Sequence record: PQ657784
DNA: 64,000 bases
Direction: 5' to 3' (one strand)
DNA from: Escherichia phage EPIMRB01
The notes beneath the pieces are model-generated. The model ran no database searches. It worked only from the letters and a program-made list of their open reading frames with translations, and had not been told where the DNA came from. The translations under genes were made by a program, and so were the position numbers. Below are positions 27,392 through 50,600 of the stretch, one piece after another (the stretch's first letter is position 1; the number at the start of each line of letters is the position of its first letter).

Positions 27392-27398
27392 GTTTACC

Positions 27399-27860: not shown

Positions 27861-27888
27861 GTTATTCTCCTCTTAACTGATAGAAAAA

Positions 27889-29040: not shown

Positions 29041-29047
29041 ATAAACC

Positions 29048-29377
29048 TCAATTAGAAAATAAATTTATCCAAGATTGTTCTTTAATTAAAAATGGCTCAG
29101 AATCATATGCCATTAAACTTTGGGTGATTAGTCCTTTAAAAGGTCCATCAATAAATTCCATGGTAAAATATGGAATTTTATTCATTAACTGTGCGTTAGG
29201 AGCAGTGCACAAAACTCTGCATCCTTTGAATACACCCTTTTGTAATTTGTATTGCTTGGGATAAAATTCGCTCAAAATGTTATTATTTGCTAAAATTTCA
29301 AAATGATTCACCAATTTATTTTTAATAGTTTTTGGTGAAAAATAAAGATATTCGAAAAGCTGTGTGTCTGTCATCAT
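29048..29377 (-). CDS. Hypothetical protein, 109 aa
   Basis: ORF. Confidence 0.45.
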
Positions 29378-29973: not shown

Positions 29974-30051
29974 TACCCATTACCGCACTCAGGCTCGACC
30001 TTATCACAGGTTGGCGGGAATACCTCAAATGAGGTCCAGGTTGTTCCCATA

Positions 30052-30525
30052 TTATTTGAACGATTTAACGTACTGAATAGAACCTTTACTATTTACAAAG
30101 GCAATTTTACCATTTTTATTATACATTGTAGCAGTACGTTGATAGCCATAAGTTTGTTTACCAGATTGATAACCAACTAATGCAAAATTATCTTCACCCA
30201 TTTTATTCTGTTTAGCGCGAATGCGTTCATGACCATGTGCCATAAGAACCTTAGCATCACCAGTTGCAATGGATCGACGAGTTTTTTCATCTTCAACTGT
30301 ATTAACAAAGTCGTCAAATGAATCAAATTTAGCATGAGATTTATTATACAATTTTCCATCTACTGCATAATTATATCCCTGTACATCCATCTCAACTTCT
30401 GTACCATCATCCAATACAGCAGTAATTTTCTGTCCTTTTTTAAATTTCAAAAGATCAGTAAAAGATTCAGCAATAATTTGAGAATTAATAGCTGCTTCAG
30501 TGATAAATTCTTGATATGTTTTCAT
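30052..30525 (-). CDS. Internal (capsid-packaged) protein with capsid-targeting sequence, 157 aa (IPII/IPIII position)
   Basis: N-terminus MKTYQEFITEAAINSQIIAE matches the T4 internal-protein targeting leader with protease-type cleavage after I-x-E. Confidence 0.7.
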   Translation of the reverse strand: MKTYQEFITEAAINSQIIAESFTDLLKFKKGQKITAVLDDGTEVEMDVQGYNYAVDGKLYNKSHAKFDSFDDFVNTVEDEKTRRSIATGDAKVLMAHGHERIRAKQNKMGEDNFALVGYQSGKQTYGYQRTATMYNKNGKIAFVNSKGSIQYVKSFK

Positions 30526-30579
30526 GTGTTTCCTTTAAATATTTTAATTAGTAATTTGTCTCTTCAAGCAACTGTGAAT

Positions 30580-30613
30580 ATACTATCACAATTCTAGGAG
30601 AAAGTAAACAACT

Positions 30614-30615
<2 letters not shown>
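30580..30615 (-). promoter_or_regulatory. T4-type early promoter (GTTTAC-N17-ATAGTATAT)
   Basis: Reverse complement reads GTTTACTTTCTCCTAGAATTGTGATAGTATAT; overlaps the lysozyme stop. Confidence 0.5.
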
Positions 30616-31582
<967 letters not shown>

Positions 31583-31586
<4 letters not shown>

Positions 31587-32071
31587 TTTAATTTCCTGCA
31601 TTCAGTGATAAAGTTATTTAAATTTTGAGTATATTTCTTTTCATCAAAAATCTTTTGTTGTCTGCGTAGCCGCCATGGCATTTCAATGAACGTGTACCAT
31701 ATCCCAGATAATATTGCTGCTGTAAAAATATTAACAAGTATGGTTAAAAGAATCCAATCTCCTATTCTGTCCATTGGATTTTTTATAAAAAAGTAAAATA
31801 CGAATGATGTCACAGGAAGACTAATAATATACCACAGAATCATAATCTTATCTGTGAACCAATCAGCGTTCGTTAACTTAGCGCGACCATTATAAATACA
31901 CACGAATTTATCATCTGTTGCAGTAGATGGCTTAACTGGTTGATATCCCATTCTAAACTCCCTAATCAACAAATTTTTCATATCTTCGGAACAGCCATTC
32001 CAGTCAACTCTATCAACTGAAATGCCATCATCCACATCATCTAAATCATACCAGCGAGTTTTTAAAATCAT
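31583..32071 (-). CDS. Small membrane protein, 162 aa; member of a tandem paralogue family
   Basis: Two hydrophobic helices; C-terminal motif NFITECRKLK shared with neighbours. Confidence 0.5.
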
Positions 32072-32430
32072 TTAATTTTCCTGCAATCGCTCACAAACTC
32101 TTTCATTGATTCATTTTCAATATAAGACATGTAGCTATTGTATTCTTTTAATTGTATTTTGTAATCCTTTTTTCTTTGCCAATTTATGTTAAAATTATCA
32201 TAATGAAAATATAGTATAGTGCCAAAGAATGAAAATAATGAAATCGCTATAGTAAAACGAAGTTCACTCCAAACCTCTGTTATAATTGCTGAACCATCGA
32301 TGTTTAAAATAATACAATCAATCATTAATCCAATAAGACTACCCGCAAGAGCTGCAAATACTGATACGGCAAGAATTAATAGTACCTCAGGAAACGAATA
32401 TTTGACTTTATTTAGTTTTGGCTTTTGCAT
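32068..32430 (-). CDS. Small membrane protein, 120 aa; tandem paralogue
   Basis: Two hydrophobic helices; C-terminal EFVSDCRKIK. Confidence 0.5.
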   Translation of the reverse strand: MQKPKLNKVKYSFPEVLLILAVSVFAALAGSLIGLMIDCIILNIDGSAIITEVWSELRFTIAISLFSFFGTILYFHYDNFNINWQRKKDYKIQLKEYNSYMSYIENESMKEFVSDCRKIK

Positions 32431-32792
32431 CGTGATTCCTTAACAAATTTCATAATTTCGTTAAATTCATACATATCTAGTTTAAGCTGGTGTTCCTTTT
32501 TAATCTTTTTACACTGAGCTTTCCATTCACGTACGCGTTTACGATAATGTCTTCCTTGATACCAGTATCCTACCCAATTTACAGGTACTAATAAAAATGG
32601 AACTATCATTGGAAGAATTAGTGTTGACACAAATATTACATCAAATTTATTAACAGTCATAACGTCTATAACCATTCCAGCTATAAATGATACAACTACA
32701 ACAGGACCTATTAATACATCGGTAGAAATTATCTGGCGCTTTAGTTCATACTTCAAAGGTTTACTTGGAAGGTATAGTGATGGCTTTGACAT
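32412..32792 (-). CDS. Small membrane protein, about 126 aa; tandem paralogue
   Basis: Two hydrophobic helices; C-terminal KFVKESRCK; start trimmed to an internal Met. Confidence 0.5.
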   Translation of the reverse strand: MSKPSLYLPSKPLKYELKRQIISTDVLIGPVVVVSFIAGMVIDVMTVNKFDVIFVSTLILPMIVPFLLVPVNWVGYWYQGRHYRKRVREWKAQCKKIKKEHQLKLDMYEFNEIMKFVKESRCKSQN

Positions 32793-33369
32793 ATTCTCTG
32801 CATTCCTTAACAAATTTTTCTAATAATAAATCGCTTTCAAAATTAGGATTTTCCACGAATTTATCAAAAAGATCATCAACAATAGTTAAGATATTCTTTT
32901 TACTAAGAATACGCTTATTTTCATATTTTGTTTCAGAGTCAACTATAAGAGTAAAGAAATATTTCTTTCCCTGAAATTTTACCGTAGTATCAATATAAAA
33001 TAAATTTGACTTTTGTAAATTACGTTTAAACCCTGCGTCACTTAAACTGTAAACGCCAAGATAATCATAATCGTCGTTTAAATAACAAACTGTCCATTCA
33101 GGGGAAACGAAATCAGTAAATTCAACATCAAAATCACACGTCAATGAATGAATTGATTCAATACTTTTAATGAGTATTCCAGGGCGTATTAAAGACTTTT
33201 TACCTCTATAAAATCTTCCAGAAAGACTTTCATCAGTTTCATATGAAGACCCCCAATAGTAATTACGTCCTTCTGCCATACGTTTAAGAGCATTTAGTAA
33301 TTGGTCTGGAACATCAACCTGTCTTTGGAACTCTTCAAACATTGAATTGAAATCATTTTGCATTCTCAT
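32761..33369 (-). CDS. Hypothetical soluble protein, 202 aa, carrying the same C-terminal motif as the downstream membrane paralogues
   Basis: C-terminal EKFVKECREYVK. Confidence 0.5.
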   Translation of the reverse strand: MRMQNDFNSMFEEFQRQVDVPDQLLNALKRMAEGRNYYWGSSYETDESLSGRFYRGKKSLIRPGILIKSIESIHSLTCDFDVEFTDFVSPEWTVCYLNDDYDYLGVYSLSDAGFKRNLQKSNLFYIDTTVKFQGKKYFFTLIVDSETKYENKRILSKKNILTIVDDLFDKFVENPNFESDLLLEKFVKECREYVKAITIPSK

Positions 33370-33390
33370 TCCTATTTACTCCAAGTAATA

Positions 33391-33404
33391 GGGGCCGAAG
33401 CCCC
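33391..33404 (-). terminator. UUCG tetraloop hairpin (ggggc-cgaa-gcccc)
   Basis: Inverted repeat at the 3' end of ORF 33411..34004. Confidence 0.4.
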
Positions 33405-33410
33405 TTATCA

Positions 33411-34004
33411 TTATTTCAGAGAATTAATGTATTCCTGAACATCGGCAGAGGTAGTTTCAACCCCAGAAATATTGCCATTAAAGGTTTCAACTCGAGCAAG
33501 AGTATCTTCAATATCAACTTTAGTCAGTGCTGCAATTTCAACTACATCATCGGCAGTACTAATTCCAAGGGCATTTGCCGCACGAGTTTCACGGATATAT
33601 TCCAATTTAACTGCAAGTTCTTGGCGAGCATCATCTAACTCAACTACTTTCTTGGCGATTTCAATTCGCATTTCAGCATAACCATCAGCTTTAGTAGTCA
33701 ACTGTTCAGCTGTTCGACGATATAGTAAACCGAGCTTAGCATGCATTGTTACATCTTGACCTTCGGAAAGAAGTTTACGAATTTCACGCTCTTTTGATTC
33801 GGCTTGTCGATTCTTTTCGATAACAAGTTCACGAATACGTTTTTCTTCATTAATAGATTTAACAGAAGCAGTTTTTAGATCTTTAATTTTATCAAGTAGT
33901 TTTGCTGCTGCAGCAGTATACTGTTCTTCAACAGATAAATTTTTAGCCATAGCAGAACCAAGTTTAGTGCGAATAAACTCAACAATTTTCTTCAGTGTGT
34001 TCAT
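33411..34004 (-). CDS. Coiled-coil protein, 197 aa
   Basis: Long charged helical repeats; no enzymatic motif. Confidence 0.5.
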
Positions 34005-34047
34005 AGTATTTCCTTAGGTTGATTAAAAATTAAAATCTGTGAAAGAA

Positions 34048-34578
34048 TTATATCATGCTATTTAAGAGATGTAAACTATTTTTAATTTTACAAATTCGTT
34101 CAGCTTCTTCAACAGCGGCGGCGATAATGCTTTTAGCTATAGGAGTACTAATACTAGTAGCTTTTACACTTAACACGATTTCTTTATCTTTACCAGGCCA
34201 ACCCCACGATTTTTCACCGTGAGTGCCTTTAATTACAGCAGACACCTCAAGTGAGCATCCATTATCATATGTTTTTACATTGACAACCCAAGGTTCACTT
34301 TTCTCAATCGGTTTCTCAATCGGTTTATCCCAGTAAATATTAAGAATACGTGGGACATCAAATTTGGCAGGACAAATCTTAACCGTAAGACCTTCGCTTT
34401 CTAGCCAATTAATAAGAGGGCGTTCATACAGGCGACGATGTGGGCTTGGGATTCGACAAGCCTTATGTCCGTTGCTTGCGGCTTCACTAAGCTGTTCTAA
34501 TACCTGCTTTTGCATTATTGATAAGATACCATCAAAAGATTTTTCGGAAGTTTCATTCAGTTCGGTATAAAGAGACAT
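34048..34578 (-). CDS. Hypothetical protein, 176 aa
   Basis: ORF. Confidence 0.5.
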   Translation of the reverse strand: MSLYTELNETSEKSFDGILSIMQKQVLEQLSEAASNGHKACRIPSPHRRLYERPLINWLESEGLTVKICPAKFDVPRILNIYWDKPIEKPIEKSEPWVVNVKTYDNGCSLEVSAVIKGTHGEKSWGWPGKDKEIVLSVKATSISTPIAKSIIAAAVEEAERICKIKNSLHLLNSMI

Positions 34579-34633
34579 AACAGTTTCCTCAAATTATAGG
34601 CTCATAATATCTCAATCATGAGCCTATGTAAAC

Positions 34634-34897
34634 TTATTTCATATTATTGAAATATTCTTCTGCGATTTCGTCGTTATCGTGGTAAACTTTAGAAGACAGT
34701 TTAACATAACCTTCAGCGGTGAACATGTTAATCACAACCTTTACAGTATACCACTGACCATCTTCATTACCCATTACTGCATAGGTTTCAAACATCGGAT
34801 GGTCAGGACCGATAACTTTAATATCATTCACTGTACGACCGAAATCTTCTGAAACGCATTTCATAAAGAAGTTGAACAGTTCGCCGTAATTATCCAT
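34634..34897 (-). CDS. Hypothetical protein, about 87 aa (start at the Met after promoter and GGAGAAT RBS)
   Basis: Track ORF 34634..34951 trimmed to MDNYGELF. Confidence 0.45.
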   Translation of the reverse strand: MDNYGELFNFFMKCVSEDFGRTVNDIKVIGPDHPMFETYAVMGNEDGQWYTVKVVINMFTAEGYVKLSSKVYHDNDEIAEEYFNNMK

Positions 34898-34942
34898 TTT
34901 ATTCTCCAAGTTGTTTTTCTGTATCAGTAGTTGATAGTTGTA

Positions 34943-34995
34943 TAGTACCATGGAAGAACGGGGATGTAAACCGTTTTGTGAAAAAATTTTTAAAA
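34943..34995 (-). promoter_or_regulatory. T4-type early promoter with conserved leader
   Basis: Reverse complement reads AAAAATTTTTTCACAAAACGGTTTAC-N17-GGTACTATACAACTATCAACTAC. Confidence 0.55.
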
Positions 34996-35104
34996 AGTTT
35001 TAGGGAATTCTAGGGCAGGGATGGGCAATTAAAGGATAGGATAATATATTATAAAGGGTATAAACTAAATGATGCCTAGAGAGGTCCAGAAAGGCCTAGA
35101 TATC

Positions 35105-35132
35105 AAAAAGCCCCAACCTTTCGGTCGGGGCT
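35105..35132 (-). terminator. Intrinsic terminator (AGCCCC-loop-GGGGCU plus U5); copy 1 of an exact 28-nt repeat
   Basis: Plus strand aaaaagccccaacctttcggtcggggct just after the stop of ORF 35139..35612. Confidence 0.65.
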
Positions 35133-35138
35133 AAAATG

Positions 35139-35612
35139 TTATTTGATTTGTTTAGCAGACCAAATGCGGTCTTTGATGATTTTTTGGATGTCTTCAACAT
35201 ACTCAAGAGAGTGAGCATGTGGGTTATCTTTGAAACTATAAGCACGAGCTAGCTTTTGGCCTTCGGTTTTGATTACTAAAAGCTCTTTAAGGATAGCTTC
35301 ATATTTAGCGATAATTCCTTTAACAATATTTTTTTCTTGTGCAGCTTTAGGATCTGCTTTAGGAGCAGGTTTACCCGAAGCCTTTGCAAAAGCAGCGCCA
35401 GTAGCAACTAAACTTTTCCAGGCCATACTAACTGCATTTCCCGTAAATCCTTCTGCTTTCATGTCGCGAGCAAACTGGAATCGTGATTCGTCAGAAGCAT
35501 CTTTATAGGAATATTTACCCGCTGCAATGGCTGCTTTTGCGACAGCTTGAATTTCGGTGCTAGATGCTTCATTTAACACCGCTTCATTTAAAAATTGAGC
35601 ATATGATTTCAT
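35139..35612 (-). CDS. Internal-protein-like protein with capsid-targeting-type leader, 157 aa
   Basis: N-terminus MKSYAQFLNEAVLNE resembles the internal-protein leader MK(T/S)YxEF(I/L)xE with an L-x-E cleavage context; Ala/Lys-rich body. Confidence 0.6.
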   Translation of the reverse strand: MKSYAQFLNEAVLNEASSTEIQAVAKAAIAAGKYSYKDASDESRFQFARDMKAEGFTGNAVSMAWKSLVATGAAFAKASGKPAPKADPKAAQEKNIVKGIIAKYEAILKELLVIKTEGQKLARAYSFKDNPHAHSLEYVEDIQKIIKDRIWSAKQIK

Positions 35613-35652
35613 CTTATTTCCTGTTTTAATTCGTGGATTTAATATACTACTA

Positions 35653-35660
35653 TATTTATA
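35653..35660 (-). promoter_or_regulatory. Late promoter TATAAATA upstream of the internal-protein-like gene
   Basis: Reverse complement of 35653-35660 is TATAAATA. Confidence 0.5.
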
Positions 35661-35662
35661 CT

Positions 35663-35690
35663 AAAAAGCCCCAACCTTTCGGTCGGGGCT
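35663..35690 (-). terminator. Intrinsic terminator; copy 2 of the exact 28-nt repeat
   Basis: Identical sequence to 35105-35132. Confidence 0.6.
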
Positions 35691-35693
35691 AAG

Positions 35694-35996
35694 CCTTGCG
35701 GCAACCTTGTCGGGGTTCCACCTGCTAAGGCAAGTGTTTGTACGAAACGCCGGGATTCGAACCCGGTTATTAAGCAGTTGACGCTACTCAATATTTTTAA
35801 AAGGCCATATCTCGACCATATCCGAACGTTCCGTCAAAAACGCTACTCGGCTTACGGCAAAGATATTTCCTCGAATCGATAATTCGGTGCGCCGTTTCTG
35901 CTGTGATAGTAAAGAATCAGAACACAGTAAAACTGTGGGAGAAACTATACTCCAGGGAACATCAGTCCGACGACTTACCGGTAGCGACCCGGTTTC
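35694..35996 (-). ncRNA. Non-coding region next to the tRNA cluster containing a tRNA-like T-arm; candidate small stable RNA or tRNA remnant
   Basis: No credible ORF; 35749-35768 cgccgggattcgaacccggt is a perfect T-stem-loop (GGTTCGAATCC) without a full cloverleaf. Confidence 0.3.
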
Positions 35997-36347
35997 TTAG
36001 TATTCTTTTAAAGCATCAACCTGTTCACGACGTTTACGCCATAAATCAATTACTTCATACGCAGATTCAGCATTTCGAATTGGACGGCATTTATATAAAG
36101 ACTTATGATTTTGATATTGTGTAGATAACGGAATTTTATCTAAAAGGTCTTTACGTTCAAAATATTCGTAACCATCTAAACCAAATGAACGATTTTTGAG
36201 AAATTGCCAATGACCGTATTCGTTTTCGACATAAACATAATCTGCATGCTGATAAAGTAAATTAATTACACGTTCAGAAATAACAGTGTCATTGTGATTA
36301 AAATAGAATGTTAAATCATGAACTACTAAATAAACATTACCTTTCAT
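35997..36347 (-). CDS. Hypothetical protein, 116 aa, immediately downstream of the tRNA cluster
   Basis: ORF; no motif recognised. Confidence 0.45.
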   Translation of the reverse strand: MKGNVYLVVHDLTFYFNHNDTVISERVINLLYQHADYVYVENEYGHWQFLKNRSFGLDGYEYFERKDLLDKIPLSTQYQNHKSLYKCRPIRNAESAYEVIDLWRKRREQVDALKEY

Positions 36348-36363
36348 ATTTTCCTCACTTAAT

Positions 36364-36439
36364 TGGTCGAGGCAGTAGGGATCGAACCTACGACCTAGGA
36401 CTTAGAAGGTCCTTGCTCTTCCTTCTGAGCTATGCCTCG
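36364..36439 (-). tRNA. tRNA-Arg (anticodon UCU)
   Basis: Cloverleaf folded by eye: 7-bp acceptor, D-stem GCTC/GAGC, anticodon loop CTTCTAA, T-loop TTCGATC, encoded CCA. Confidence 0.8.
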
Positions 36440-36443
36440 GATT

Positions 36444-36518
36444 TGGCGGACGTGATAGGATTCGAACCTATAACCAATCGCTTAACAGGCGATCGCTCTG
36501 CCATTGAGCTACACATCC
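36444..36518 (-). tRNA. tRNA-Asn (anticodon GUU)
   Basis: Acceptor GGATGTG/CACGTCC, D-arm AGCTCAATGGCAGAGC, anticodon loop CTGTTAA, T-arm, CCA. Confidence 0.7.
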
Positions 36519-36522
36519 AAAT

Positions 36523-36609
36523 TGGTGGGGAGTGATGGAGTCGAACCACCCGAGTCGCAATGACAATGAATTTACAGTCCACACCGCTACCTCTACGGGA
36601 TAACTCCCC
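36523..36609 (-). tRNA. tRNA-Tyr (anticodon GUA), long variable arm; D-arm non-canonical
   Basis: Perfect acceptor GGGGAGT/ACTCCCC, anticodon loop CTGTAAA, T-arm GGTGG-TTCGACT-CCATC, CCA; D-stem pairs only weakly. Confidence 0.6.
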
Positions 36610-36618
36610 AAATTAATT

Positions 36619-36693
36619 TGGTGGCCCTGGGTGGAATTGAACCACCATCTGGCGATTATGAGTCGCTTGCTTGAACCTTCCAGCTACAGGGCC
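36619..36693 (-). tRNA. tRNA with CAU anticodon (tRNA-Ile2-like; Met not excluded)
   Basis: Acceptor GGCCCTG/CAGGGCC, anticodon loop CTCATAA, T-arm, CCA. Confidence 0.7.
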
Positions 36694-36694
36694 T

Positions 36695-36770
36695 TGGTGC
36701 TGATTGACGGAATCGAACCGCCGACCTTCTCATTACAAGTGAGTTGCTCTTCCTTCTGAGCTAAATCAGC
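36695..36770 (-). tRNA. tRNA-Thr (anticodon UGU)
   Basis: Acceptor GCTGATT/AATCAGC, D-arm AGCTCAGAAGG, anticodon loop CTTGTAA, T-arm, CCA. Confidence 0.8.
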
Positions 36771-36775
36771 AAAGC

Positions 36776-36865
36776 TGGCGGAGGCGATAGGATTTGAACC
36801 TATGAGTCGCCGGAGCGACTGCCGGTTTTCAAGACCGGTGCATTAAACCACTCTGCCACGCCTCC
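36776..36865 (-). tRNA. tRNA-Ser (anticodon UGA), long variable arm
   Basis: Acceptor GGAGGCG/CGCCTCC, anticodon loop CTTGAAA, long extra arm, T-arm GGTTCAAATCC. Confidence 0.8.
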
Positions 36866-36867
36866 AG

Positions 36868-36941
36868 TCTCCATACAAGGATTTGAACCTTGGACCTCCT
36901 GATCCCAAATCAGGCGCTCTACCAAACTGAGCTACACGGAG
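36868..36941 (-). tRNA. tRNA-Pro (anticodon UGG), CCA not encoded
   Basis: D-arm AGCTCAGTTTGGTAGAGC, anticodon loop TTTGGGA, T-arm GGTTCAAATCC; acceptor includes G-U pairs. Confidence 0.7.
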
Positions 36942-36951
36942 TAAATTAAAT

Positions 36952-37025
<74 letters not shown>

Positions 37026-37030
37026 AAATT

Positions 37031-37119
37031 TGGTGCGAGAAGTGGGACTCGAACCCACAAGGAAATCATTCCGCAGCATTTTAAGTGCTGTGCCTTTACC
37101 AATTTGACCATTCTCGCGC
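37031..37119 (-). tRNA. tRNA-Leu (anticodon UAA), long variable arm
   Basis: Acceptor GCGCGAG/CTCGCAC, anticodon loop CTTAAAA, long extra arm, T-arm GGTTCGAGTCC, CCA. Confidence 0.8.
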
Positions 37120-37191
37120 TGGGAATAAAGGACTTGAACCTTTGCATCCTGGAATCAAAATCCAGTGCCTTACCAACTTGGCTAATTCCCA
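37120..37191 (-). tRNA. tRNA-Gln (anticodon UUG), CCA not encoded
   Basis: Acceptor TGGGAAT/ATTCCCA, anticodon loop TTTTGAT, T-arm GGTTCAAGTCC. Confidence 0.75.
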
Positions 37192-37277
37192 ATTATTAAC
37201 AAAGGCTCTCAAACAAGAACCCTTGATGATAGAGGGTATTAATCAGTGCGGTATGAGTTAATAATAACAAATAATTC

Positions 37278-37793
37278 TTAAAGCAAATCAACCATTTTAA
37301 CAGTCGGCAAAACAATTTCTTCTTCAATATAAGTAAATTCTACATGTTCAACTACACGCAAGAAATCATAGTCATAGTATTCAGAAGCATGACCAAGAAT
37401 ATCAATGAGGCCTTCAGATATCTTATTACCATTCACAAAGAATAAATCAAATACACGTTCTTCATCTTCTTCGGATTTATTACCAAGGTCAACTTCTATG
37501 TCAAAGAGCTTTTTAATGAATTCTGGATAAAGTTGGTCTGAGAACAGTCCTTCAACCAAATATTCATATATAAAAAGCTCTTGCTCGCTGAACAAACCAT
37601 TACCACAATAACGTTCAACTTTGGTACTAGAATGACGACTCTTAAACTTCTTCAAGAGATATTTAAATTGTTGGAGCTCATTCTCTTCTACGCCAAACAG
37701 TGTTTTGGTTTTATAGTTGTCACCATCATTTTCACAGGTAGTGACATCAATTACGTAACCCTTAGGAATTGTGCTGCCTAAACGAATATACAT
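37278..37793 (-). CDS. Hypothetical acidic protein, 171 aa
   Basis: ORF upstream of the tRNA cluster. Confidence 0.5.
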   Translation of the reverse strand: MYIRLGSTIPKGYVIDVTTCENDGDNYKTKTLFGVEENELQQFKYLLKKFKSRHSSTKVERYCGNGLFSEQELFIYEYLVEGLFSDQLYPEFIKKLFDIEVDLGNKSEEDEERVFDLFFVNGNKISEGLIDILGHASEYYDYDFLRVVEHVEFTYIEEEIVLPTVKMVDLL

Positions 37794-38089
37794 TTGTTCA
37801 CCATATTAATATAAGTATATTTAATACATTCAAGACCCAAAGGATTCTTGAAAATATCATATTCAAGAGGACCTTTTTCTGTTTCAATAAAGAAATCAAA
37901 ATTTACTGTATTAAATTTACGGTCTTCCTTCACTAATTTAACTTGAGAAGATGAACGGTCAATGTAAACCTTTTCAACTTCAAAACATGTTAAAATGCCA
38001 TAATCATCAATCAAGGCTTTAGCAGCATCTTGATCATATTTATATCCATTTTCAACGGACGATACTTTCGCATAAAGAATCATTATCAA
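37778..38089 (-). CDS. Hypothetical protein, 103 aa
   Basis: ORF. Confidence 0.5.
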   Translation of the reverse strand: MIMILYAKVSSVENGYKYDQDAAKALIDDYGILTCFEVEKVYIDRSSSQVKLVKEDRKFNTVNFDFFIETEKGPLEYDIFKNPLGLECIKYTYINMVNKCIFV

Positions 38090-38466
38090 CCTTCATCAAC
38101 AATAGTATGCGTATTGGCATTTACAATTTGCCACCAATCAAAGCGATTAGAACCATACATCGGTTTGTTTTCATTTTCTTTAATAATGCCACGGAGTTCA
38201 TCTTCAGTGGCGGCTTTCGCGATTAAATCAGCATATCCACCACGAGGATAATAATTATCACCTGCAAAAAGTAAAAAGTTTGGTTTAATGTTATTGAACT
38301 CTTCAAGAGTAATAACTTTTCCTGTTGGTTGAACAATCTCTACATATTTATATCCCAATTTTTGAGCAGCATCTACTGCTTCAAGCAAAGTATCATGAGC
38401 CCATCCTATTTGACAATTCGGCTTTTTAGATGGATTAGCCTGATAATCCGCGTACACTTTATACAT
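38086..38466 (-). CDS. Hypothetical protein, about 126 aa (start at the Met with AAGGTGA RBS)
   Basis: Track ORF 38086..38499 trimmed to MYKVYADYQ. Confidence 0.5.
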   Translation of the reverse strand: MYKVYADYQANPSKKPNCQIGWAHDTLLEAVDAAQKLGYKYVEIVQPTGKVITLEEFNNIKPNFLLFAGDNYYPRGGYADLIAKAATEDELRGIIKENENKPMYGSNRFDWWQIVNANTHTIVDEG

Positions 38467-38467
38467 T

Positions 38468-38653
38468 CTATTCACCTTTAGAAATTTTATCCATAACAAT
38501 AGCGATTAAACCAATTAAAAATGCTACTACAAGTGAAAAAACATTTTCTGCTGTAGTCAATAATCCGCATATAAATCCAACAAACATTGAAAAACTAAAA
38601 GCGGAAGCAGAAATTGCAATAGCAACATTTCGAATTAATTCACAACGTTTCAT
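38468..38653 (-). CDS. Small membrane protein, 61 aa
   Basis: Two hydrophobic segments; GGAGGAGAAT RBS; directly after an early promoter. Confidence 0.5.
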   Translation of the reverse strand: MKRCELIRNVAIAISASAFSFSMFVGFICGLLTTAENVFSLVVAFLIGLIAIVMDKISKGE

Positions 38654-38680
38654 TTTATTCTCCTCGGTAGTTGATAGGGT

Positions 38681-38730
38681 AATAGTATCACAACTAAAAC
38701 CCTATGTAAACAACTTTGTGAAATATTTAT
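38681..38730 (-). promoter_or_regulatory. T4-type early promoter with conserved leader variant
   Basis: Reverse complement reads AATAAATATTTCACAAAGTTGTTTAC-N17-GATACTATTACCCTATCAACTAC. Confidence 0.55.
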
Positions 38731-39017
38731 TACAAAAGATTTTTAGCAATAATCTTGAGATGTGCCGCAGAAATGTGTTTAGCTTTAAACAACGCAGTTT
38801 CTTCAGCAGGAGAGATAATGATTGTAGCACCATCCTTTTTAGCAGACCACCCATCACCTAGGTAAACAGTACCTTTGATTTCTTCGCCATCAACCAAACT
38901 AATCATTGGTTTACCTTCTCGTCCTTTATTTGCTTTAATAACTTCAGAAGTAAGAGTAGCTTCAGTAATAGTAGAAACCGGGGTAGTTGTAGAAGTAAAT
39001 TCTTTGAAAGTTTTCAT
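38730..39017 (-). CDS. Internal protein with capsid-targeting leader, 95 aa (IPI position and size)
   Basis: N-terminus MKTFKEFTSTTTPVSTITE with I-T-E cleavage context; located between 57B and the tRNA cluster. Confidence 0.65.
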   Translation of the reverse strand: MKTFKEFTSTTTPVSTITEATLTSEVIKANKGREGKPMISLVDGEEIKGTVYLGDGWSAKKDGATIIISPAEETALFKAKHISAAHLKIIAKNLL

Positions 39018-39045
39018 TTTATTTTCCTAATTAATTTTGATGAGA

Positions 39046-39786
<741 letters not shown>

Positions 39787-39787
<1 letters not shown>

Positions 39788-40500
39788 TATAGTACCTTTA
39801 GTGTATTTTTAATTTTAGAAAAAAGTTCTTCAAGAGAACCATCGTTTGTAATTACTAAATCGCCATCACGAATTGGCAATCCAGCTTCTGTAATATGAGT
39901 ATCATTGGATTTTTGACCAGGACGAACTACATGAATTACTGTAGCACCCATCGCCCTAGCCGCATCCATTTCATGATCTTGACGAGTATCAGGAACGATA
40001 TAATAATCATAACCTGAGTTAAATTTATCAAGATAATCTAAAGCAAATAATTTTACCCAATACATGCGGTCGAAGTTATTAACAATCAAATCCGTACCTA
40101 GGGCTTGCATCAGACGACGGACTGACCATTGATCTTCAATATTATTTATAACGTCAGCAATCTTGTTAAATGCTACGAAATTAACTGCGTCATCAAAAAC
40201 AAACACACCTTTAATTGGGCTTTTACTATTAAGATAGCAAAATGCTTGTTCCATAATCGTAATTACTTCTAATTTAGTCAGATTTAAATTAGTCTCACGA
40301 TCATAGTCAATTCCTTCAAACTCTTTACGAGTTAAGCAAGGATAGTCAGTGTTTGCAGCAAACACACCCCATGCATAAGCCAATGCATCCTTAATAGGAC
40401 CAGCAAGTTGATATTTAACTGCAGAATAATTATTCATAATAAAATCTGCAGTAGTATCTTTTCCACTACGCTTTACACCACTTAAAAAGATTAGTTTCAT
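39787..40500 (-). CDS. 1: Deoxynucleoside monophosphate kinase gp1
   Basis: 237 aa; P-loop GVKRSGKDT; position after 57A. Confidence 0.88.
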
Positions 40501-40549
40501 ATGTTTCTCCTCAAATTTAGTTAAGATTATAACACATGAAACTTAAGCA

Positions 40550-41080
40550 TTAAACTTCTGCTATAATTTTGCCATCTTTTTCTACTTGAAAATACGTATA
40601 AGGAATCGTTGCTGTGCATACTAAAGCTGGGTCTGAATCTTCTGTGTAGCTAAATTCTACTTCAGACAGGTCAGAAACCCAAGGCTTATAAAAGTTTATT
40701 GACATCACGATTTCAGTTTTACTATTATCTAAAATGTAAAGCGTAATGTATTCAGGACCTGTTTTTTGGGCAGTATTTTCGCCTGTAAGATAGTTACTAG
40801 TTCCTAGCATCCATTCATACATTCCTATCCACGACTTAAGTTCTTCATCAACTATAAATCTCACAATGAGTGGGTCGTACTCAAATGTAACTCCTGGACG
40901 CTGTGCTCGGCCTAGTCCAAAAGGCCCAGTCACGGTATCAGTAACAGGTATCCTAATTCCCGGAATAGGAACTGACTGAGCATTTAAAGTAAAAGCAGAT
41001 GTAGTATTACTATGCGGTATTGATACTACAAAGTTAGTTGTATTTGCTTGGTTAAAAATTTGTTGTAGTGCTTGCGACAT
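40550..41080 (-). CDS. 3: Tail sheath stabiliser/tail completion protein gp3
   Basis: About 176 aa from MSQALQQIFNQ; track ORF extends upstream in-frame; T4 order 1-3-2-4. Confidence 0.75.
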   Translation of the reverse strand: MSQALQQIFNQANTTNFVVSIPHSNTTSAFTLNAQSVPIPGIRIPVTDTVTGPFGLGRAQRPGVTFEYDPLIVRFIVDEELKSWIGMYEWMLGTSNYLTGENTAQKTGPEYITLYILDNSKTEIVMSINFYKPWVSDLSEVEFSYTEDSDPALVCTATIPYTYFQVEKDGKIIAEV

Positions 41081-41186
41081 ATATTCCTCATAATGCTTTA
41101 TAAATGTTGGTGGTATAATGGGTCTAAGTCCCTTCCATTCAATTCCAATTAGAACAAACAATAGAAAAGAATGGAAGATAATAGAA

Positions 41187-42011
41187 TTAGATATTTGACC
41201 AGACTTTGTTTGCAGAGAAACGTTTTCCTTTTGAAACGAACTGCTGAAGTGGCATTAACACAACGTTCGCCCAGTCTTTCGGGGCGATTTCAACAAGGCT
41301 ACCCATAATATTACCAGGTATATATGCCTTAATCATTTGGTCTGCACCCCTAAATCCTTTCACTTGACTCCAATCAATTTTTAATTTCGTTTTATTAGTA
41401 ATAGTAGGTGTATTTGAATATTGCTTTAAAAGCTCTTCTAGAAATTGCTGACGAGCTTTAGGTGGAATATAGTGCAAGTTCAATCCGTACATTAAATTAT
41501 GTTTACCTAAACCAAGGTAAATTATCAAAGGAAATTTATCCCAATAAGGAAGAGTTTCCTTGTGTTTAGCATCATAAGCAAAAGCATATATTCGTCCCGG
41601 CTGCGGGCGAACAACTTTATGTCCTTTTACCTGCTTAATAGTTTCAGCAAACCACTTTCTAGTTTTATTATTAATTGCTGCACCTTCATTACGAATTTTA
41701 TCACGCAATGTTTGTCTGAATGAATTTATCATAAGCAGTTGTCTTTCTTGCTTATTGAGTTTATTCATTGGTTTTGATTCAAGCTTTTGAATCTTTTCAG
41801 CTGTTTTAATTCCTGAAGCATATTTTGACATTGCCGAAGTAAACGTAGAATATTTAATTCCTTTTTCTTCAGCAAATTGCTTTCCTGTCATTCCTTTTGC
41901 TTTGGACTTTTTGTATTCAAGACCTATCTGAATCCATTTCTTTTCGTTTAATGATTGCTTAACCTTTGGAACTTGGGGAGTGCTTTCATTAATTATTTGA
42001 AAAATAGCCAT
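41187..42011 (-). CDS. 2: DNA end-protector protein gp2
   Basis: 274 aa, basic; position between 3 and 4. Confidence 0.8.
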
Positions 42012-42463
42012 TATGCCCCCTTAAAGCCAAGAGCTCGTAATCCATCTTCTGTTAAAATTCTAAATTTTATTCCACGCTTTTCAGCTAAAGCTTGAGCTGC
42101 TTTCCATTTGTCAGTATTAACTGAATATGTATAAATTTCATTCATAAATCTTTTCTTCGCTGCAGTTGTTAGATGTGCTGGTTTAACTGGTGGTTGTGTT
42201 TCTTTTTTAGGCTTTATTTCAATAAAAAATTCTTGTCCAGAAGAATCTTTCATCCAAATATCCATGAAGTATCTACGTTTTTTCCCTTCTGCATTACAAA
42301 AATAAGGAATTACTGCTGTTTCACTACCCCATGCAATAATTTCTGGATTTTTATCTAACCATTCAAAAAAGAATTTTTCCCAATTTGATCTATACGTAAT
42401 TTTTTTAGGGTCACCTCTATATTTTGATATATTTTTAGGAACCCATTTTCCAGAATATGCCAT
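42011..42463 (-). CDS. 4: Head completion protein gp4
   Basis: 150 aa; last minus-strand gene before the divergent late promoter region. Confidence 0.8.
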
Positions 42464-42474
42464 TGGATTCTCCT

Positions 42475-42497
42475 TATAAATAGATAATATATTTATA
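42475..42497. promoter_or_regulatory. Divergent late promoters: TATAAATA on plus strand (gene 53) and on minus strand (gene 4)
   Basis: Plus 42475-42482 tataaata; reverse complement of 42490-42497 is TATAAATA. Confidence 0.55.
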
Positions 42498-42510
42498 AAC
42501 AGGAGGGCCC

Positions 42511-43101
42511 ATGCTCTTTACATTTTTTGATCCGATTGAATATGCGGCCAAAACGGTGAATAAAAACGCGCCGACTATTCCTATGACAGATATTTTTAGA
42601 AACTATAAAGACTATTTCAAACGCGCTCTTGCGGGATATCGCTTACGTACTTATTATATTAAAGGTTCACCACGCCCGGAAGAATTAGCAAATGCTATAT
42701 ATGGAAATCCACAGTTGTATTGGGTTTTATTGATGTGTAATGATAATTATGATCCGTATTATGGATGGATTACTTCGCAAGAAGCTGCTTATCAAGCATC
42801 TATACAAAAATACAAAAACGTAGGTGGAGACCAAATAGTATATCATGTGAACGAGAATGGTGAAAAATTTTATAATTTAATAGCATACGATGATAATCCA
42901 TATGTTTGGTATGATAAAGGCGATAAAGCTAGAAAATATCCTCAATATGAAGGAGCACTTGCTGCCGTCGATACGTATGAAGCTGCTGTTCTTGAAAATG
43001 AAAAACTTCGTCAAATAAAAATAATAGCAAAATCAGACATTAATTCATTTATGAACGACCTTATACGTATAATGGAGAAATCTTATGGAAATGATAAGTA
43101 A
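42511..43101 (+). CDS. 53: Baseplate wedge protein gp53
   Basis: 196 aa; first gene of the plus-strand late block, before gene 5. Confidence 0.85.
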   Translation: MLFTFFDPIEYAAKTVNKNAPTIPMTDIFRNYKDYFKRALAGYRLRTYYIKGSPRPEELANAIYGNPQLYWVLLMCNDNYDPYYGWITSQEAAYQASIQKYKNVGGDQIVYHVNENGEKFYNLIAYDDNPYVWYDKGDKARKYPQYEGALAAVDTYEAAVLENEKLRQIKIIAKSDINSFMNDLIRIMEKSYGNDK

Positions 43102-44812
43102 TAACCTTAATTGGTTTGTTGGTGTTGTTGAAGATAGAATGGACCCATTAAAATTAGGTCGTGTTCGTGTTCGTGTTGTTGGTCTGCATCCACATCAAAG
43201 AGCCCAAGGCGATGTAATGGGTATTCCAACTGATAAATTACCGTGGATGTCAGTTATTCAACCTATAACTTCGGCAGCAATGTCTGGAATTGGAGGCTCC
43301 GTTACTGGTCCGGTAGAAGGAACTAGAGTTTATGGTCATTTTTTAGACAAATGGAAAACTAACGGAATTGTCCTTGGCACTTATGGCGGAATAGTTCGCG
43401 AAAAACCTAATAGACTTGAAGGATTTTCTGACCCAACTGGTCAGTATCCTAGACGTCTAGGAAATGATACTAACGTATTAAACCAAGGCGGAGAAGTAGG
43501 ATATGATTCGTCTTCTAATATTATCCAAGATAGTAATCTAGACACTGCGATAAATCCCGATGATAGACCGCTATCAGAGATTCCAACTGATGATAATCCA
43601 AATATGTCAATGGCTGAAATGCTTCGCCGTGATGAAGGATTAAGACTAAAAGTTTATTGGGATACTGAAGGATATCCGACAATTGGCATTGGTCATCTTA
43701 TCATGAAGCAGCCAGTTCGTGATATGACCCAAATTAATAAAGTTTTATCAAAACAAGTTGGTCGTGAAATTACCGGAAATCCAGGTTCTATTACAATGGA
43801 AGAAGCGGTAACTTTATTTGAACGCGATTTGGCTGATATGCAACGTGACATTAAATCACATTCTAAAGTTGGCCCAGTTTGGCAAGCAGTTAATCGTTCT
43901 CGTCAAATGGCATTAGAAAATATGGCATTTCAGATGGGCGTTGGTGGCGTAGCTAAATTTAACACAATGTTAACTGCTATGTTAGCCGGAGATTGGGAAA
44001 AAGCATACAAAGCCGGTCGTGATTCATTATGGTATCAACAAACAAAAGGCCGTGCATCCCGTGTTACCATGATTATTCTTACAGGTAATTTGGAATCATA
44101 CGGTATTGAAGTTAAAACACCAGCTAGGTCTTTGTCAGCAATGGCTGCTACTGTAGCAAAGTCTTCTGACCCGGCTGACCCTCCTATTCCGAATGATTCG
44201 AGAATTTTATTCAAAGAACCTGTTTCTTCATATAAAGGTGAATATCCGTATGTTCACACAATGGAAACTGAAAGCGGTCATATTCAGGAATTTGATGATA
44301 CCCCTGGACAAGAACGATACAGATTAGTTCATCCGACTGGAACATATGAGGAAGTATCACCGTCAGGAAGAAGAACAAGAAAAACTGTTGATAATTTATA
44401 TGATATAACAAATGCTGATGGTAATTTTTTGGTAGCCGGCGATAAAAAGACTAACGTCGGTGGATCAGAAATTTACTACAACATGGATAATCGTCTTCAC
44501 CAAATAGATGGAAGCAACACAATATTTGTGCGCGGCGATGAAACTAAGACAGTTGAAGGTAATGGAACTATCCTAGTAAAAGGTAATGTTACTATTGTAG
44601 TTGAAGGTAATGCTGACATTACAGTTAAAGGGGATGCTACCACTTTAGTTGAAGGAAATCAGACTAATACAGTAAATGGAAATCTTTCTTGGAAAGTTGC
44701 TGGGACAGTTGATTGGGACGTTGGTGGTGATTGGACAGAAAAAATGGCATCTATGAGTTCTATTTCATCTGGTCAATACACAATTGATGGATCGAGGATT
44801 GACATTGGCTAA
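43085..44812 (+). CDS. 5: Baseplate central spike/tail lysozyme gp5
   Basis: 575 aa; internal lysozyme domain similar to e (EGLRLKVYWDTEGYPTIGIGHLI); C-terminal VxGxxxxx beta-helix repeats. Confidence 0.92.
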   Translation: MEMISNNLNWFVGVVEDRMDPLKLGRVRVRVVGLHPHQRAQGDVMGIPTDKLPWMSVIQPITSAAMSGIGGSVTGPVEGTRVYGHFLDKWKTNGIVLGTYGGIVREKPNRLEGFSDPTGQYPRRLGNDTNVLNQGGEVGYDSSSNIIQDSNLDTAINPDDRPLSEIPTDDNPNMSMAEMLRRDEGLRLKVYWDTEGYPTIGIGHLIMKQPVRDMTQINKVLSKQVGREITGNPGSITMEEAVTLFERDLADMQRDIKSHSKVGPVWQAVNRSRQMALENMAFQMGVGGVAKFNTMLTAMLAGDWEKAYKAGRDSLWYQQTKGRASRVTMIILTGNLESYGIEVKTPARSLSAMAATVAKSSDPADPPIPNDSRILFKEPVSSYKGEYPYVHTMETESGHIQEFDDTPGQERYRLVHPTGTYEEVSPSGRRTRKTVDNLYDITNADGNFLVAGDKKTNVGGSEIYYNMDNRLHQIDGSNTIFVRGDETKTVEGNGTILVKGNVTIVVEGNADITVKGDATTLVEGNQTNTVNGNLSWKVAGTVDWDVGGDWTEKMASMSSISSGQYTIDGSRIDIG

Positions 44813-44846
44813 TATACTTCCAATGAGCGCTGATTTAGGAGAATCC

Positions 44847-45341
44847 ATGGAAGGTTCTTCTATCGACGTCACCTTTACCGCTCAATTAGAAACAGGTGAA
44901 ACGTTAGTATCTATAAATATAACTAGTTACGAAGAAACTCCTGGGGTTTTAGTAGAAGAAAATCATTTATATGGAACGTATGAATCTGTATTTGGATTTG
45001 GAAATGATGCATTGAAATATCGTTTAGATGATGAATTTAAAACTGCTGCTTCATGGGAAGACCTTCCAACTGATTCTAATACTCAGTTATATCTATGGAA
45101 AGCTCCTCAAAACCTCCAGAAGACATTCACTTACGAAGTAACATTAATATATGACTACCAAGAACAAAGTGAATCTGGAGGTTCTGGTAGTAATTCTAGG
45201 TCATCTTCTGATACTATTGAACCAACGGATCCTCCAGCTCCAATAAGAAAAACTCTTGTTAAAAATTACACAAAAACTATAGTTGGAAATTGGAGCCGTT
45301 GGGCTAATAAATTGAGAAGCTACGTATATGAGAGGCAATAA
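44847..45341 (+). CDS. 5.1: gp5.1-position protein (about 164 aa from the Met with AGGAG RBS)
   Basis: ORF 44784..45341 trimmed to remove the overlap with gene 5. Confidence 0.6.
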
Positions 45342-45634
45342 TGTCAGGATTAAGTTATGATAAGTGTGTTACTGCTGGCCATGAAGCATGGCCTCCAACA
45401 GTTGTGAATGCTACACAAAATAAAGTATTCACTGGAGGAATTGCTGTTCTCGTAGCAGGTGATCCAATTACAGAACATACAGAAATTAAAAAGCCATATG
45501 AAACACATGGCGGAGTGACACAACCTAGAACTTCTAAGGTATATGTCACTGGAAAGAAAGCTGTTCAAATGGCTGATCCAATATCATGTGGCGATACTGT
45601 GGCTCAGGCATCATCTAAAGTATTCATTAAATAG
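45341..45634 (+). CDS. 5.4: Spike-tip PAAR-like protein gp5.4
   Basis: 97 aa; [30 protein letters not shown] matches T4 gp5.4 as recalled. Confidence 0.85.
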
Positions 45635-45642
45635 GATTTAAA

Positions 45643-47625
45643 ATGGCAAATACCCCTGTAAATTATCAATTAACAAGAACAGCAAATGCTATTCCCGAGA
45701 TATTCGTCGGGGGTACATTTGCTGAAATAAAACAAAACCTCATTGAATGGCTTAATGGCCAAAATGAATTTTTGGATTATGATTTTGAAGGCTCAAGATT
45801 AAACGTTCTGTGCGACCTTTTGGCTTATAATACATTATACATTCAGCAGTTTGGTAATGCTGCCGTATATGAAAGCTTTATGCGTACTGCTAACTTACGT
45901 AGTTCAGTAGTTCAAGCGGCGCAAGATAATGGATATTTACCTACTTCAAAATCAGCTGCTCAAACTGAAATTATGCTAACTTGTACAGACGCATTGAATA
46001 GAAATTACATTACTATTCCTCGTGGTACTCGCTTTTTAGCATATGCAAAAGATACTTCTGTTAATCCTTATAACTTTGTCTCTACCGAAGATGTTATTGC
46101 TATTCGTGATAAAAATAACCAGTATTTTCCACGTTTAAAATTAGCCCAAGGACGTATAGTAAGAACTGAAATCGTTTATGATAAATTAACACCTATTATC
46201 ATTTATGACAAAAATATAGATAGAAACCAAGTTAAGCTGTATGTTGATGGAGCAGAATGGATTAACTGGACAAGAAAGTCAATGGTTCACGCTGGTTCTA
46301 CATCAACAATTTACTATATGCGTGAAACTATTGATGGAAATACTGAATTTTATTTTGGTGAAGGTGAGATTTCCGTTAATGCGGCAGAAGGAGCATTGAC
46401 CGCTAATTATATTGGAGGTCTTAAACCTACTCAGAACTCTACGATTGTTATTGAGTATATCAGTACTAACGGTGCAGATGCGAACGGTGCAGTCGGATTT
46501 TCATACGCAGATACATTAACAAATATAACTGTCATCAATATTAATGAAAACCCAAACGATGACCCAGATTTTGTTGGGGCAGATGGCGGCGGTGACCCAG
46601 AAGATATTGAACGTATTCGCGAATTGGGTACTATTAAACGTGAAACCCAGCAACGCTGCGTAACTGCGACCGACTATGATACATTCGTTTCAGAAAGATT
46701 CGGTTCTATTATTCAAGCGGTTCAGACTTTCACTGATTCTACTAAGCCTGGTTATGCATTTATTGCTGCTAAACCTAAATCAGGACTATATTTAACTACT
46801 GTACAACGTGAAGATATTAAAAATTATCTCAAAGATTATAATTTAGCTCCTATTACACCATCAATTATTTCTCCTAATTATCTTTTTGTTAAGACTAATT
46901 TAAAAGTCACATATGCTTTAAATAAGCTGCAAGAATCCGAACAGTGGCTTGAAGGTCAAATAATTGATAAAATTGATCGTTATTATACCGAAGATGTAGA
47001 AATTTTTAACTCATCTTTCGCTAAATCTAAGATGTTGACATATGTAGATGATGCAGATCATTCTATCATTGGCTCATCGGCGACAATTCAGATGGTACGT
47101 GAAGTACAAAACTTCTATAAAACGCCTGAAGCGGGTATTAAATACAATAATCAAATAAAAGATCGTTCTATGGAATCTAATACGTTTTCATTTAATTCCG
47201 GACGAAAGGTTGTAAATCCTGATACTGGCTTAGAAGAAGATGTATTATATGACGTTCGTATAGTATCAACAGACCGAGATTCTAAAGGAATTGGCAAAGT
47301 TATTATTGGTCCATTTGCTTCTGGTGATGTTACAGAAAATGAAAACATTCAGCCATATACAGGCAATGATTTTAATAAATTAGCAAGTTCCGATGGACGT
47401 GACAAATACTATGTTATCGGTGAAATAAATTATCCAGCTGACATGATTTATTGGAATATCGCTAAAATTAATTTAACATCCGATAAATTTGAGGTTCAGA
47501 CTATTGAGCTATATTCTGATCCAATAGACGATGTTATTTTCACACGCGATGGTTCACTGATTGTATTTGAAAATGATTTACGTCCACAATACTTAACTAT
47601 CGATTTGGAGCCTATATCACAATGA
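45643..47625 (+). CDS. 6: Baseplate wedge protein gp6
   Basis: 660 aa; size and order as in T4. Confidence 0.9.
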   Translation: MANTPVNYQLTRTANAIPEIFVGGTFAEIKQNLIEWLNGQNEFLDYDFEGSRLNVLCDLLAYNTLYIQQFGNAAVYESFMRTANLRSSVVQAAQDNGYLPTSKSAAQTEIMLTCTDALNRNYITIPRGTRFLAYAKDTSVNPYNFVSTEDVIAIRDKNNQYFPRLKLAQGRIVRTEIVYDKLTPIIIYDKNIDRNQVKLYVDGAEWINWTRKSMVHAGSTSTIYYMRETIDGNTEFYFGEGEISVNAAEGALTANYIGGLKPTQNSTIVIEYISTNGADANGAVGFSYADTLTNITVININENPNDDPDFVGADGGGDPEDIERIRELGTIKRETQQRCVTATDYDTFVSERFGSIIQAVQTFTDSTKPGYAFIAAKPKSGLYLTTVQREDIKNYLKDYNLAPITPSIISPNYLFVKTNLKVTYALNKLQESEQWLEGQIIDKIDRYYTEDVEIFNSSFAKSKMLTYVDDADHSIIGSSATIQMVREVQNFYKTPEAGIKYNNQIKDRSMESNTFSFNSGRKVVNPDTGLEEDVLYDVRIVSTDRDSKGIGKVIIGPFASGDVTENENIQPYTGNDFNKLASSDGRDKYYVIGEINYPADMIYWNIAKINLTSDKFEVQTIELYSDPIDDVIFTRDGSLIVFENDLRPQYLTIDLEPISQ

Positions 47626-50600
47626 CAGTAAAAGCACCTTCAGTCACTAGTCTCAGAATTTCCAAGTTATCCGCAAATCAGGTGCAAGTACGCTGGGATG
47701 ACGTTGGTGCTAATTTCTACTATTTTGTAGAAATCGCTGAGACAAAAACAAACTCGGGGGAAAATCTCCCGAGCAATCAATACCGATGGATTAACTTAGG
47801 ATATACTGCAAATAACAGCTTCTTTTTTGATAATGCTAATCCATTGACATCGTACATTATTAGAGTAGCTACAGCTGCGCAGGATTTTGAGCAGTCTGAT
47901 TGGATTTATACTGAAGAGTTTGAAACTTTTGCTACAAACGCTTATACATTTCAAAACATGATTGAAATGCAATTAGCTAATAAATTCATTCAGGAAAAAT
48001 TTACTCTTAATAATTCTGACTATGTCAATTTTAACAATGACACTATAATGGCTGCATTGATGAATGAATCGTTTCAATTCAGCCCATCATATGTTGATGT
48101 TTCATCAATAAGTAATTTTATTATTGGTGAAAATGAGTATCATGAAATACAAGGTTCTATTCAGCAAGTATGTAAGGATATTAACCGAGTTTATTTGATG
48201 GAATCAGAAGGGATTCTATATCTTTTTGAGCGTTATCAACCTGTAGTTAAAGTATCTAATGATAAAGGACAAACCTGGAAAGCTGTAAAGCTCTTCAATG
48301 ACCGTGTAGGATATCCTTTATCTAAGACTGTATATTACCAATCTGCAAACACAACATACGTTCTAGGATACGACAAGATTTTCTATGGCCGCAAATCTAC
48401 TGATGTTAGATGGTCAGCTGATGATGTCAGATTTAGTTCGCAGGATATAACATTTGCTAAACTTGGCGACCAATTACATCTAGGATTTGATGTAGAAATT
48501 TTTGCCACTTACGCGACTTTGCCAGCTAATGTATACCGCATTGCAGAAGCTATTACTTGCACCGATGATTACATTTACGTTGTCGCCAGAGACAAAGTTA
48601 GATACATAAAAACGAGTAATGCACCTATAGATTCTGACCCATTATCTCCAACATATTCGGAACGGCTATTTGAACCTGATACGATGACTATAACCGGAAA
48701 TCCTAAAGCAGTATGTTATAAAATGGATTCTATTGGTGATAAAGTTTTTGCTCTTATTATCGGAGAAGTTGAAACATTAAATGCTAATCCTAGAACATCA
48801 AAAATAATTGATTCTGCTGATAAAGGAATATATGTTTTAAATCATGGCACGAAAACATGGAAAAGAGTTTTTGGCAACACTGAAGAAGAAAGAAGACGTA
48901 TTCAACCTGGATATGCGAATATGTCAACTGATGGTAAATTAGTTTCTCTGTCTTCGAGTAATTTTAAATTTTTAAGCGATAACATTGTTAATGACCCTGA
49001 AACTGCAGCGAAATATCAGTTAATCGGTGCTGTTAAATATGAATTTCCTCGTGAATGGCTAGCTGATAAGCATTATCATATGATGGCATTTATAGCAGAT
49101 GAAAAATCTGATTGGGAAACTTTTACACCTCAGCCGATGAAATACTATGCAGAACCATTCTTTAACTGGTCTAAAAAATCTAACACACGCTGTTGGATAA
49201 ACAACTCTGACAGAGCTGTAGTAGTTTATGCTGATTTAAAATACACTAAAGTTATAGAAAATATTCCGGAAACATCGCCAGATAGATTAGTTCATGAATA
49301 CTGGGATGATGGTGATTGTACGATAGTAATGCCAAATGTTAAATTCACGGGATTTAAAAAATACGCGTCTGGGATGCTTTTTTATAAGTCTTCTGGTGAA
49401 ATAATTTCTTACTATGATTTTAACTATCGAGTGAGAGACACGGTTGAAATAATTTGGAAGCCAACTGGAATATTTTTAAAAGCATTTTTACAAAACCAAG
49501 AGCGTGAAACTCCTTGGTCCCCGGAAGAAGAGCATGGATTAGCTGATCCTGATTTAAGACCATTGATTGGCACAATGATGCCTGATTCTTATTTGCTACA
49601 GGATTCTAATTTTGAGGCATTCTGCGAAGCATATATTCAGTATCTTTCTGATGGATATGGAACTCAGTATAATAATTTACGAAATTTAATTCGTAACCAA
49701 TATCCGCGAGAAGAGCATGCGTGGGAATATTTGTGGTCAGAGATATATAAAAGAAACATTTATTTAAATGCTGACAAACGTGATGCTGTTGCAAGATTTT
49801 TTGAATCACGTAGCTATGATTTTTATTCTACTAAAGGAATTGAAGCATCATACAAATTTCTTTTTAAAGTTCTTTATAATGAAGAAGTTGAAATTGAAAT
49901 TGAATCTGGGGCTGGTACTGAATATGATATAATCGTTCAATCTGATTCTTTGACTGAAGATTTAGTAGGACAAACGATTTATACTGCTACAGGAAGATGT
50001 AATGTTACTTATATAGAAAGAAGCTATTCCAATGGCAAATTGCAATGGACCGTAACTATTCATAATCTTTTGGGAAGATTAATTGCCGGTCAAGAAGTTA
50101 AAGCAGAAAGACTCCCTAGTTTCGAAGGCGAAATTATTCGCGGGGTTAAAGGAAAGGATTTGCTTCAAAATAACATAGACTATATTAATAGAAGTAGATC
50201 ATATTATGTAATGAAAATTAAATCCAATTTACCTTCTTCCCGCTGGAAATCTGACGTTATTCGTTTTGTTCATCCAGTAGGATTTGGATTTATAGCAATT
50301 ACCCTTTTAACAATGTTTATTAATGTTGGTTTAACTCTTAAACACACAGAGACTATAATTAATAAATACAAAAACTATAAATGGGATTCTGGATTGCCTA
50401 CTGAATATGCTGATAGAGTAGCCAAATTGACTCCAACTGGTGAAATTGAGCATGATTCAGTAACAGGCGAAGCAATTTATGAACCTGGCCCAATGGCTGG
50501 TGTAGAATATCCTCTTCCTGATGACTATAATGCTGAAAATAATAATTCAATATTTCAAGGTCAATTGCCATCTGAACGACGTAAATTAATGAGTCCTCTA

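Follow-up and report, generated by a model that had tools for sequence, protein, structure and literature searches.

A near-identical counterpart of T4 ipI at the ipI locus of Escherichia phage EPIMRB01

The ipI locus of Escherichia phage EPIMRB01 carries a gene whose product is identical to internal protein I (IPI) of phage T4 at 94 of 95 residues, in a gap-free BLASTP alignment (NC_000866 ipI, NP_049749). On sequence evidence, this gene is very probably an orthologue, in effect an allele, of T4 ipI, with the function of IPI as an inhibitor of GmrSD. The gene is already known, ordinary, and annotated in the public record, ordinary because a single conservative residue separates its product from T4 IPI. 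According to the initial annotation, the ipI position is occupied by a gene for an internal protein, and this is borne out by the identity to T4 IPI, by a match to Pfam PF11634, and by a gene order that is the same as in T4. It had also judged the sequence to be divergent from IPI, and here the alignment gave near-identity, which refutes the judgement. The useful outcome is negative: the supposed divergence does not exist, the locus has not been exchanged, and ipI is a textbook anti-restriction gene at a textbook location that matters little in itself.

The window analysed is a stretch of 64,000 nucleotides (record PQ657784), in which the gene, its parts, and its flanking signals are located as follows.

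38682..38710, minus strand: second early promoter/PeSL, just 3' of ipI, driving the trna.4 homologue (scan and fold; two differences from T4)
38730..39017, minus strand: ipI coding sequence of 95 codons, with ATG at 39017 and TAA stop at 38730..38732 (ORF list)
38733..38960, minus strand: mature IPI* domain, residues 20-95, 76 aa, 75/76 identical to 2JUB
38817..38819, minus strand: codon 67, ATT (Ile), where T4 has GTT (Val); sole amino-acid difference from T4 IPI
38961..39017, minus strand: N-terminal leader, MKTFKEFTSTTTPVSTITE (residues 1-19), unchanged from T4 and ending in the prohead-protease motif I-T-E↓A
39025..39028, minus strand: Shine-Dalgarno AGGA, 7 nt 5' of the ipI ATG, read from the sequence and kept in T4
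39037..39068, minus strand: stem-loop over the -10 region, with GATGAGGTAGTGATACTATTATCTCATC as its core, part of a PeSL (promoter-early stem-loop) cassette (fold)
39048..39076, minus strand: T4-type ipI early promoter, TTTACA, 17 nt, TACTAT, with an extended -10 TG (consensus scan)

The gene product matches the Pfam family PF11634, IPI_T4 ("nuclease inhibitor from bacteriophage T4"), with 178.7 bits against a cut-off of 25 bits (E=2e-53), residues 20-95 being aligned to positions 1-76 of the 76 in the model. It also matches PHROG 4363, "internal virion protein" (E=3.7e-48). These two matches establish that the reading frame is a real gene and not a chance ORF. Its length of 95 aa had been likened to that of T4 IPI, and the minus-strand ORF at 38730..39017 indeed aligns without gaps. 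Three plus-strand ORFs of 36-51 aa that overlap it (38718..38861, 38755..38865, and 38875..39030) were set aside as shadow ORFs, given how strongly the minus-strand gene is supported. Nucleotide identity to T4 is 99% over 442 bases, counted from the ipI promoter up to where the next gene starts and taking in both promoter/stem-loop cassettes. Six nucleotides differ within the coding sequence, five of them synonymously, and protein and DNA alignments agree that the only residue to differ from T4 IPI is V67I (V48I in mature IPI* numbering).

Judged by its sequence, the phage itself is a Tequatrovirus, indistinguishable across the 24 kb compared from Escherichia phage AUBRB02 (OY979771.1), to which positions 27000..51000 of the window are 100.0% identical and in which the gene is annotated as "ipi1: Internal protein I". 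For positions 1..8000 AUBRB02 was not reported at 100%, and the best among the matches listed was phage FriedrichZschokke, at 99.0%. By the coordinate offset, position 1 of the window falls ahead of the first base of the linear AUBRB02 record. The mismatch over 1..8000 has one of two explanations: either a circularly permuted end has been wrapped, or the two records are near-identical but different.

The initial annotation had also described a targeting-type leader. Translation does start with MKTFKEFTSTTTPVSTITE, and these residues are identical to the capsid-targeting leader of T4 IPI. Residue 20, directly after the leader, is where the chain of PDB 2JUB starts, and the Pfam model starts there too. 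Compared with 2JUB, the NMR structure of IPI* ("Internal protein I", 76 residues), residues 20-95 show 75/76 identities (E=1.5e-44). In T4, the short N-terminal peptide of IPI is removed by the prohead protease gp21 (PMC9958956). Cleavage by gp21 at I-T-E↓A is likewise predicted here from the presence of the motif, which in the form (I/L)-T-E↓A is invariant in the 9 family members aligned. These 9 are the protein of the window and those of T4, EC128, 121/2022-2B, ECML-134, the Mosigvirus phages LF82-9 and PhAPEC2, NiC89, and Dhakavirus dhaeg. Across them the mature domain is strongly conserved, and leader residues 8-17 vary most.

An early promoter had been placed before ipI, and the consensus scan located one of T4 type immediately upstream, at 39048..39076, differing from its T4 counterpart at four positions that all lie in the spacer. 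When the 78-nt region upstream of ipI was folded, the hairpin had a stability of -18.3 kcal/mol (z = -4.28), and none of 200 shuffled sequences was as stable. The hairpin across the -10 box of the downstream promoter gave z = -2.63. An identical 19-mer, TTTCACAAAGTTGTTTACA, occurs in both elements, so that ipI is bracketed by direct repeats; their hairpin stem sequences differ, and a -10 box is embedded in each. The 18-mer TTCACAAAGTTGTTTACA, from the -35 region of the early promoters, has exact copies at 39071..39088, 38705..38722, and 7314..7331 and a copy with 3 mismatches at 34965..34982, all the exact copies being on the minus strand; the pattern search, which allowed up to 3 mismatches, thus returned 4 matches against 0.09 expected by chance. 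By sequence and predicted fold, the elements flanking ipI fit the published PeSL cassettes and their promoter consensus in PST/T4, TTTACW-N17-TAYWAT (PMC4122927). A role in the modular shuffling of genes in T4-like phages has been proposed for such cassettes (PMC4122927; PMC2839356).

The genes around ipI are arranged in the order gene 1, 57A, 57B/Acb1, ipI, trna.4, trna.3, trna.2, and tRNAs, as in T4 (NC_000866). The upstream neighbour 57B (39090..39545, minus) matches Pfam Acb1 (E=2.6e-60), and on its 5' side lie 57A (Pfam GP57) and gene 1 (dNMP kinase). Acb1 is an anti-CBASS cyclic-nucleotide phosphodiesterase family, and several database records still call the gene "RNA ligase". With this match, two counter-defence genes, Acb1 and IPI, adjoin each other. 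On the 3' side of ipI, the homologues of trna.4, trna.3, and trna.2 correspond to PHROGs 1692, 1411, and 2023. The location between 57B and the tRNA cluster, as it was first described, is correct but loose, as four ORFs intervene before the tRNAs: these three homologues and a 171-aa ORF.

The latter (37278..37793, minus), which lies after the trna.2 homologue and before the tRNA genes, belongs to phrog_2290 (unknown function) and has no Pfam match; the corresponding place in T4 is without an annotated gene. It was considered as a relocated segB homing endonuclease gene and rejected, BLASTP finding no similarity to T4 SegB (E=2.4). The tRNA cluster itself (36364..37191, minus) comprises ten genes (Arg, Asn, Tyr, Met-CAT, Thr, Ser, Pro, Gly, Leu, and Gln). 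By contrast, the T4 cluster has eight genes and is interrupted by segB, so the cluster of the window adds Asn and Tyr and is without segB.

What is known of T4 IPI suggests how the product would act. IPI belongs to the prohead core, each head containing about 360 copies, and is injected together with the DNA (PMC9958956). The encapsidation of T4 IPI* and its ejection with DNA are known (PMC4437046), as is its inhibition of CT596/Eco94-type GmrSD restriction (PMC4437046; PMC12373910). Following this literature, ipI would have an early transcript, starting at its own promoter, and would be transcribed late in infection too, and the 95-aa precursor would enter the scaffolding core of the prohead through its N-terminal leader. 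There gp21 would cut after Glu19, at I-T-E↓A, releasing the 76-aa IPI*, of which some 360 copies per head would be ejected into the cell with the DNA. IPI* would then bind and inactivate the CT596-type GmrSD type IV restriction endonuclease, sparing the glucosyl-hydroxymethylcytosine DNA. Sequence identity, leader and cleavage motif, promoter, and synteny are conserved with T4, and it is by homology that packaging, cleavage, and GmrSD inhibition are expected of the V67I allele. The window encodes a DNA alpha-glucosyltransferase (2814..4016; Pfam AGT, E=4e-237), and the phage would thus probably produce glucosyl-hmC DNA, the substrate of GmrSD. In AUBRB02, the annotation has a prohead protease gene shortly past the position at which the window ends.

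Could the gene be something other than a functional T4-type ipI? That the locus is exchanged among related phages had been put forward initially, and this is sound as background: PeSL-type repeats with their exact shared 19-mer flank ipI, and polymorphism at ip loci is documented (PMC12373910, citing Repoila et al. 1994; PMC4122927). A different internal-protein gene could on these grounds have been swapped in by recombination between PeSL cassettes, as in other T-even phages. This was tested directly and refuted, the occupant being T4 ipI with 99% identity in both DNA and protein. With a product matching T4 IPI at all but one residue, the locus has not been exchanged for another internal-protein gene, and the chance that a swap explains it is close to nil. 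Equally far-fetched is the idea that ipI is a non-functional or unexpressed remnant, since the frame is intact and of full length, the promoter, ribosome-binding site, and cleavage site are all conserved, and the fact that five of the six coding differences from T4 are synonymous is consistent with purifying selection.

The remaining question concerns the one substituted residue, which might shift the set of GmrSD variants that IPI* inhibits. Position 67 is Val in 8/8 of the other family members sampled, the Mosigvirus and Dhakavirus homologues included, so that Ile67 is a derived state at a position conserved in homologues down to 58% identity. Moreover, the Ip proteins are strictly specific to their cognate GmrSD: Ip1, Ip2, and Ip3 each block none but the cognate variant, the target of Ip1 being the CT596-type enzyme (PMC12373910). 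On the other hand, hardly any substitution is more conservative than Val to Ile, in which a beta-branched aliphatic side chain gains one methylene. The residue lies between Ile66 and Ile68, both invariant among the 9 aligned members, and the hydrophobic run T-I-V/I-I-S suggests a buried position in a core beta-strand and not an interface. The other 75 mature residues are unchanged, and the allele is common in phages of ordinary E. coli hosts: with tblastn, about 25 phage records were at least 99% identical to the ipI product, a level that a query of 95 aa reaches only when every residue matches, and they include UFV13 (vB_EcoM-UFV13), PEC04, and OES_C-3. A further 98 records, T4 among them, had 95-99% identity. 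As some 25 records encode the exact protein, the V67I allele is a common and already deposited variant. On grounds of chemistry and conservation, V48I would be neutral. A change of specificity is thus highly unlikely, the substitution being the mildest possible, and we attach just as little probability to the more specific proposal that Ile at IPI* position 48 is adaptive and extends or shifts inhibition to a GmrSD variant resistant to T4 IPI*, for instance a UTI89-type enzyme. The preferred reading accordingly stays with an allele of T4 ipI, very probably equivalent in function, and no feature of the sequence speaks against it.

The phage does differ from T4 at its other internal-protein locus, where Ip4 occupies the ipII/ipIII site. 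T4 has ipII and ipIII beside the lysozyme gene e, whereas this phage has Ip4 in their place, encoded by a second ORF with a capsid-targeting leader (30052..30525, minus, 157 aa, starting with MKTYQEFITE↓A and matching Pfam DUF7412), which adjoins e (30614..31108). With "Ip4" of phage RB51 its product shares 99.4% identity, and searches of Pfam and of phage records returned no function for it. For those interested in injected anti-GmrSD proteins, the Ip4 locus is a better target in this window than ipI.

Compared with known systems, the gene is closest to T4 ipI itself (NP_049749; 2JUB; PF11634), with which it shares the 95-aa length, the 19-aa leader, the I-T-E↓A site, the type and position of the promoter, the ribosome-binding site, and the neighbouring genes, and from which it differs by V67I and five synonymous nucleotide changes in the coding sequence. 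Among other IPI alleles of the Tevenvirinae, those of vB_EcoM-UFV13, PEC04, and OES_C-3 are identical to it. The proteins of the Mosigvirus phages PhAPEC2 and LF82-9 (85-88%) and of Dhakavirus dhaeg (50-58%) belong to the same family and have the same locus and cleavage motif. Variation in the more distant members is greatest in the leader, and the allele described here belongs to the T4-proper group. Finally, T4 IPII and IPIII and Ip4 share with IPI the leader MKT(F/Y)(K/Q)EF and the logic of packaging, but their similarity to IPI is confined to the leader, their locus is beside lysozyme e, and their GmrSD targets are others.
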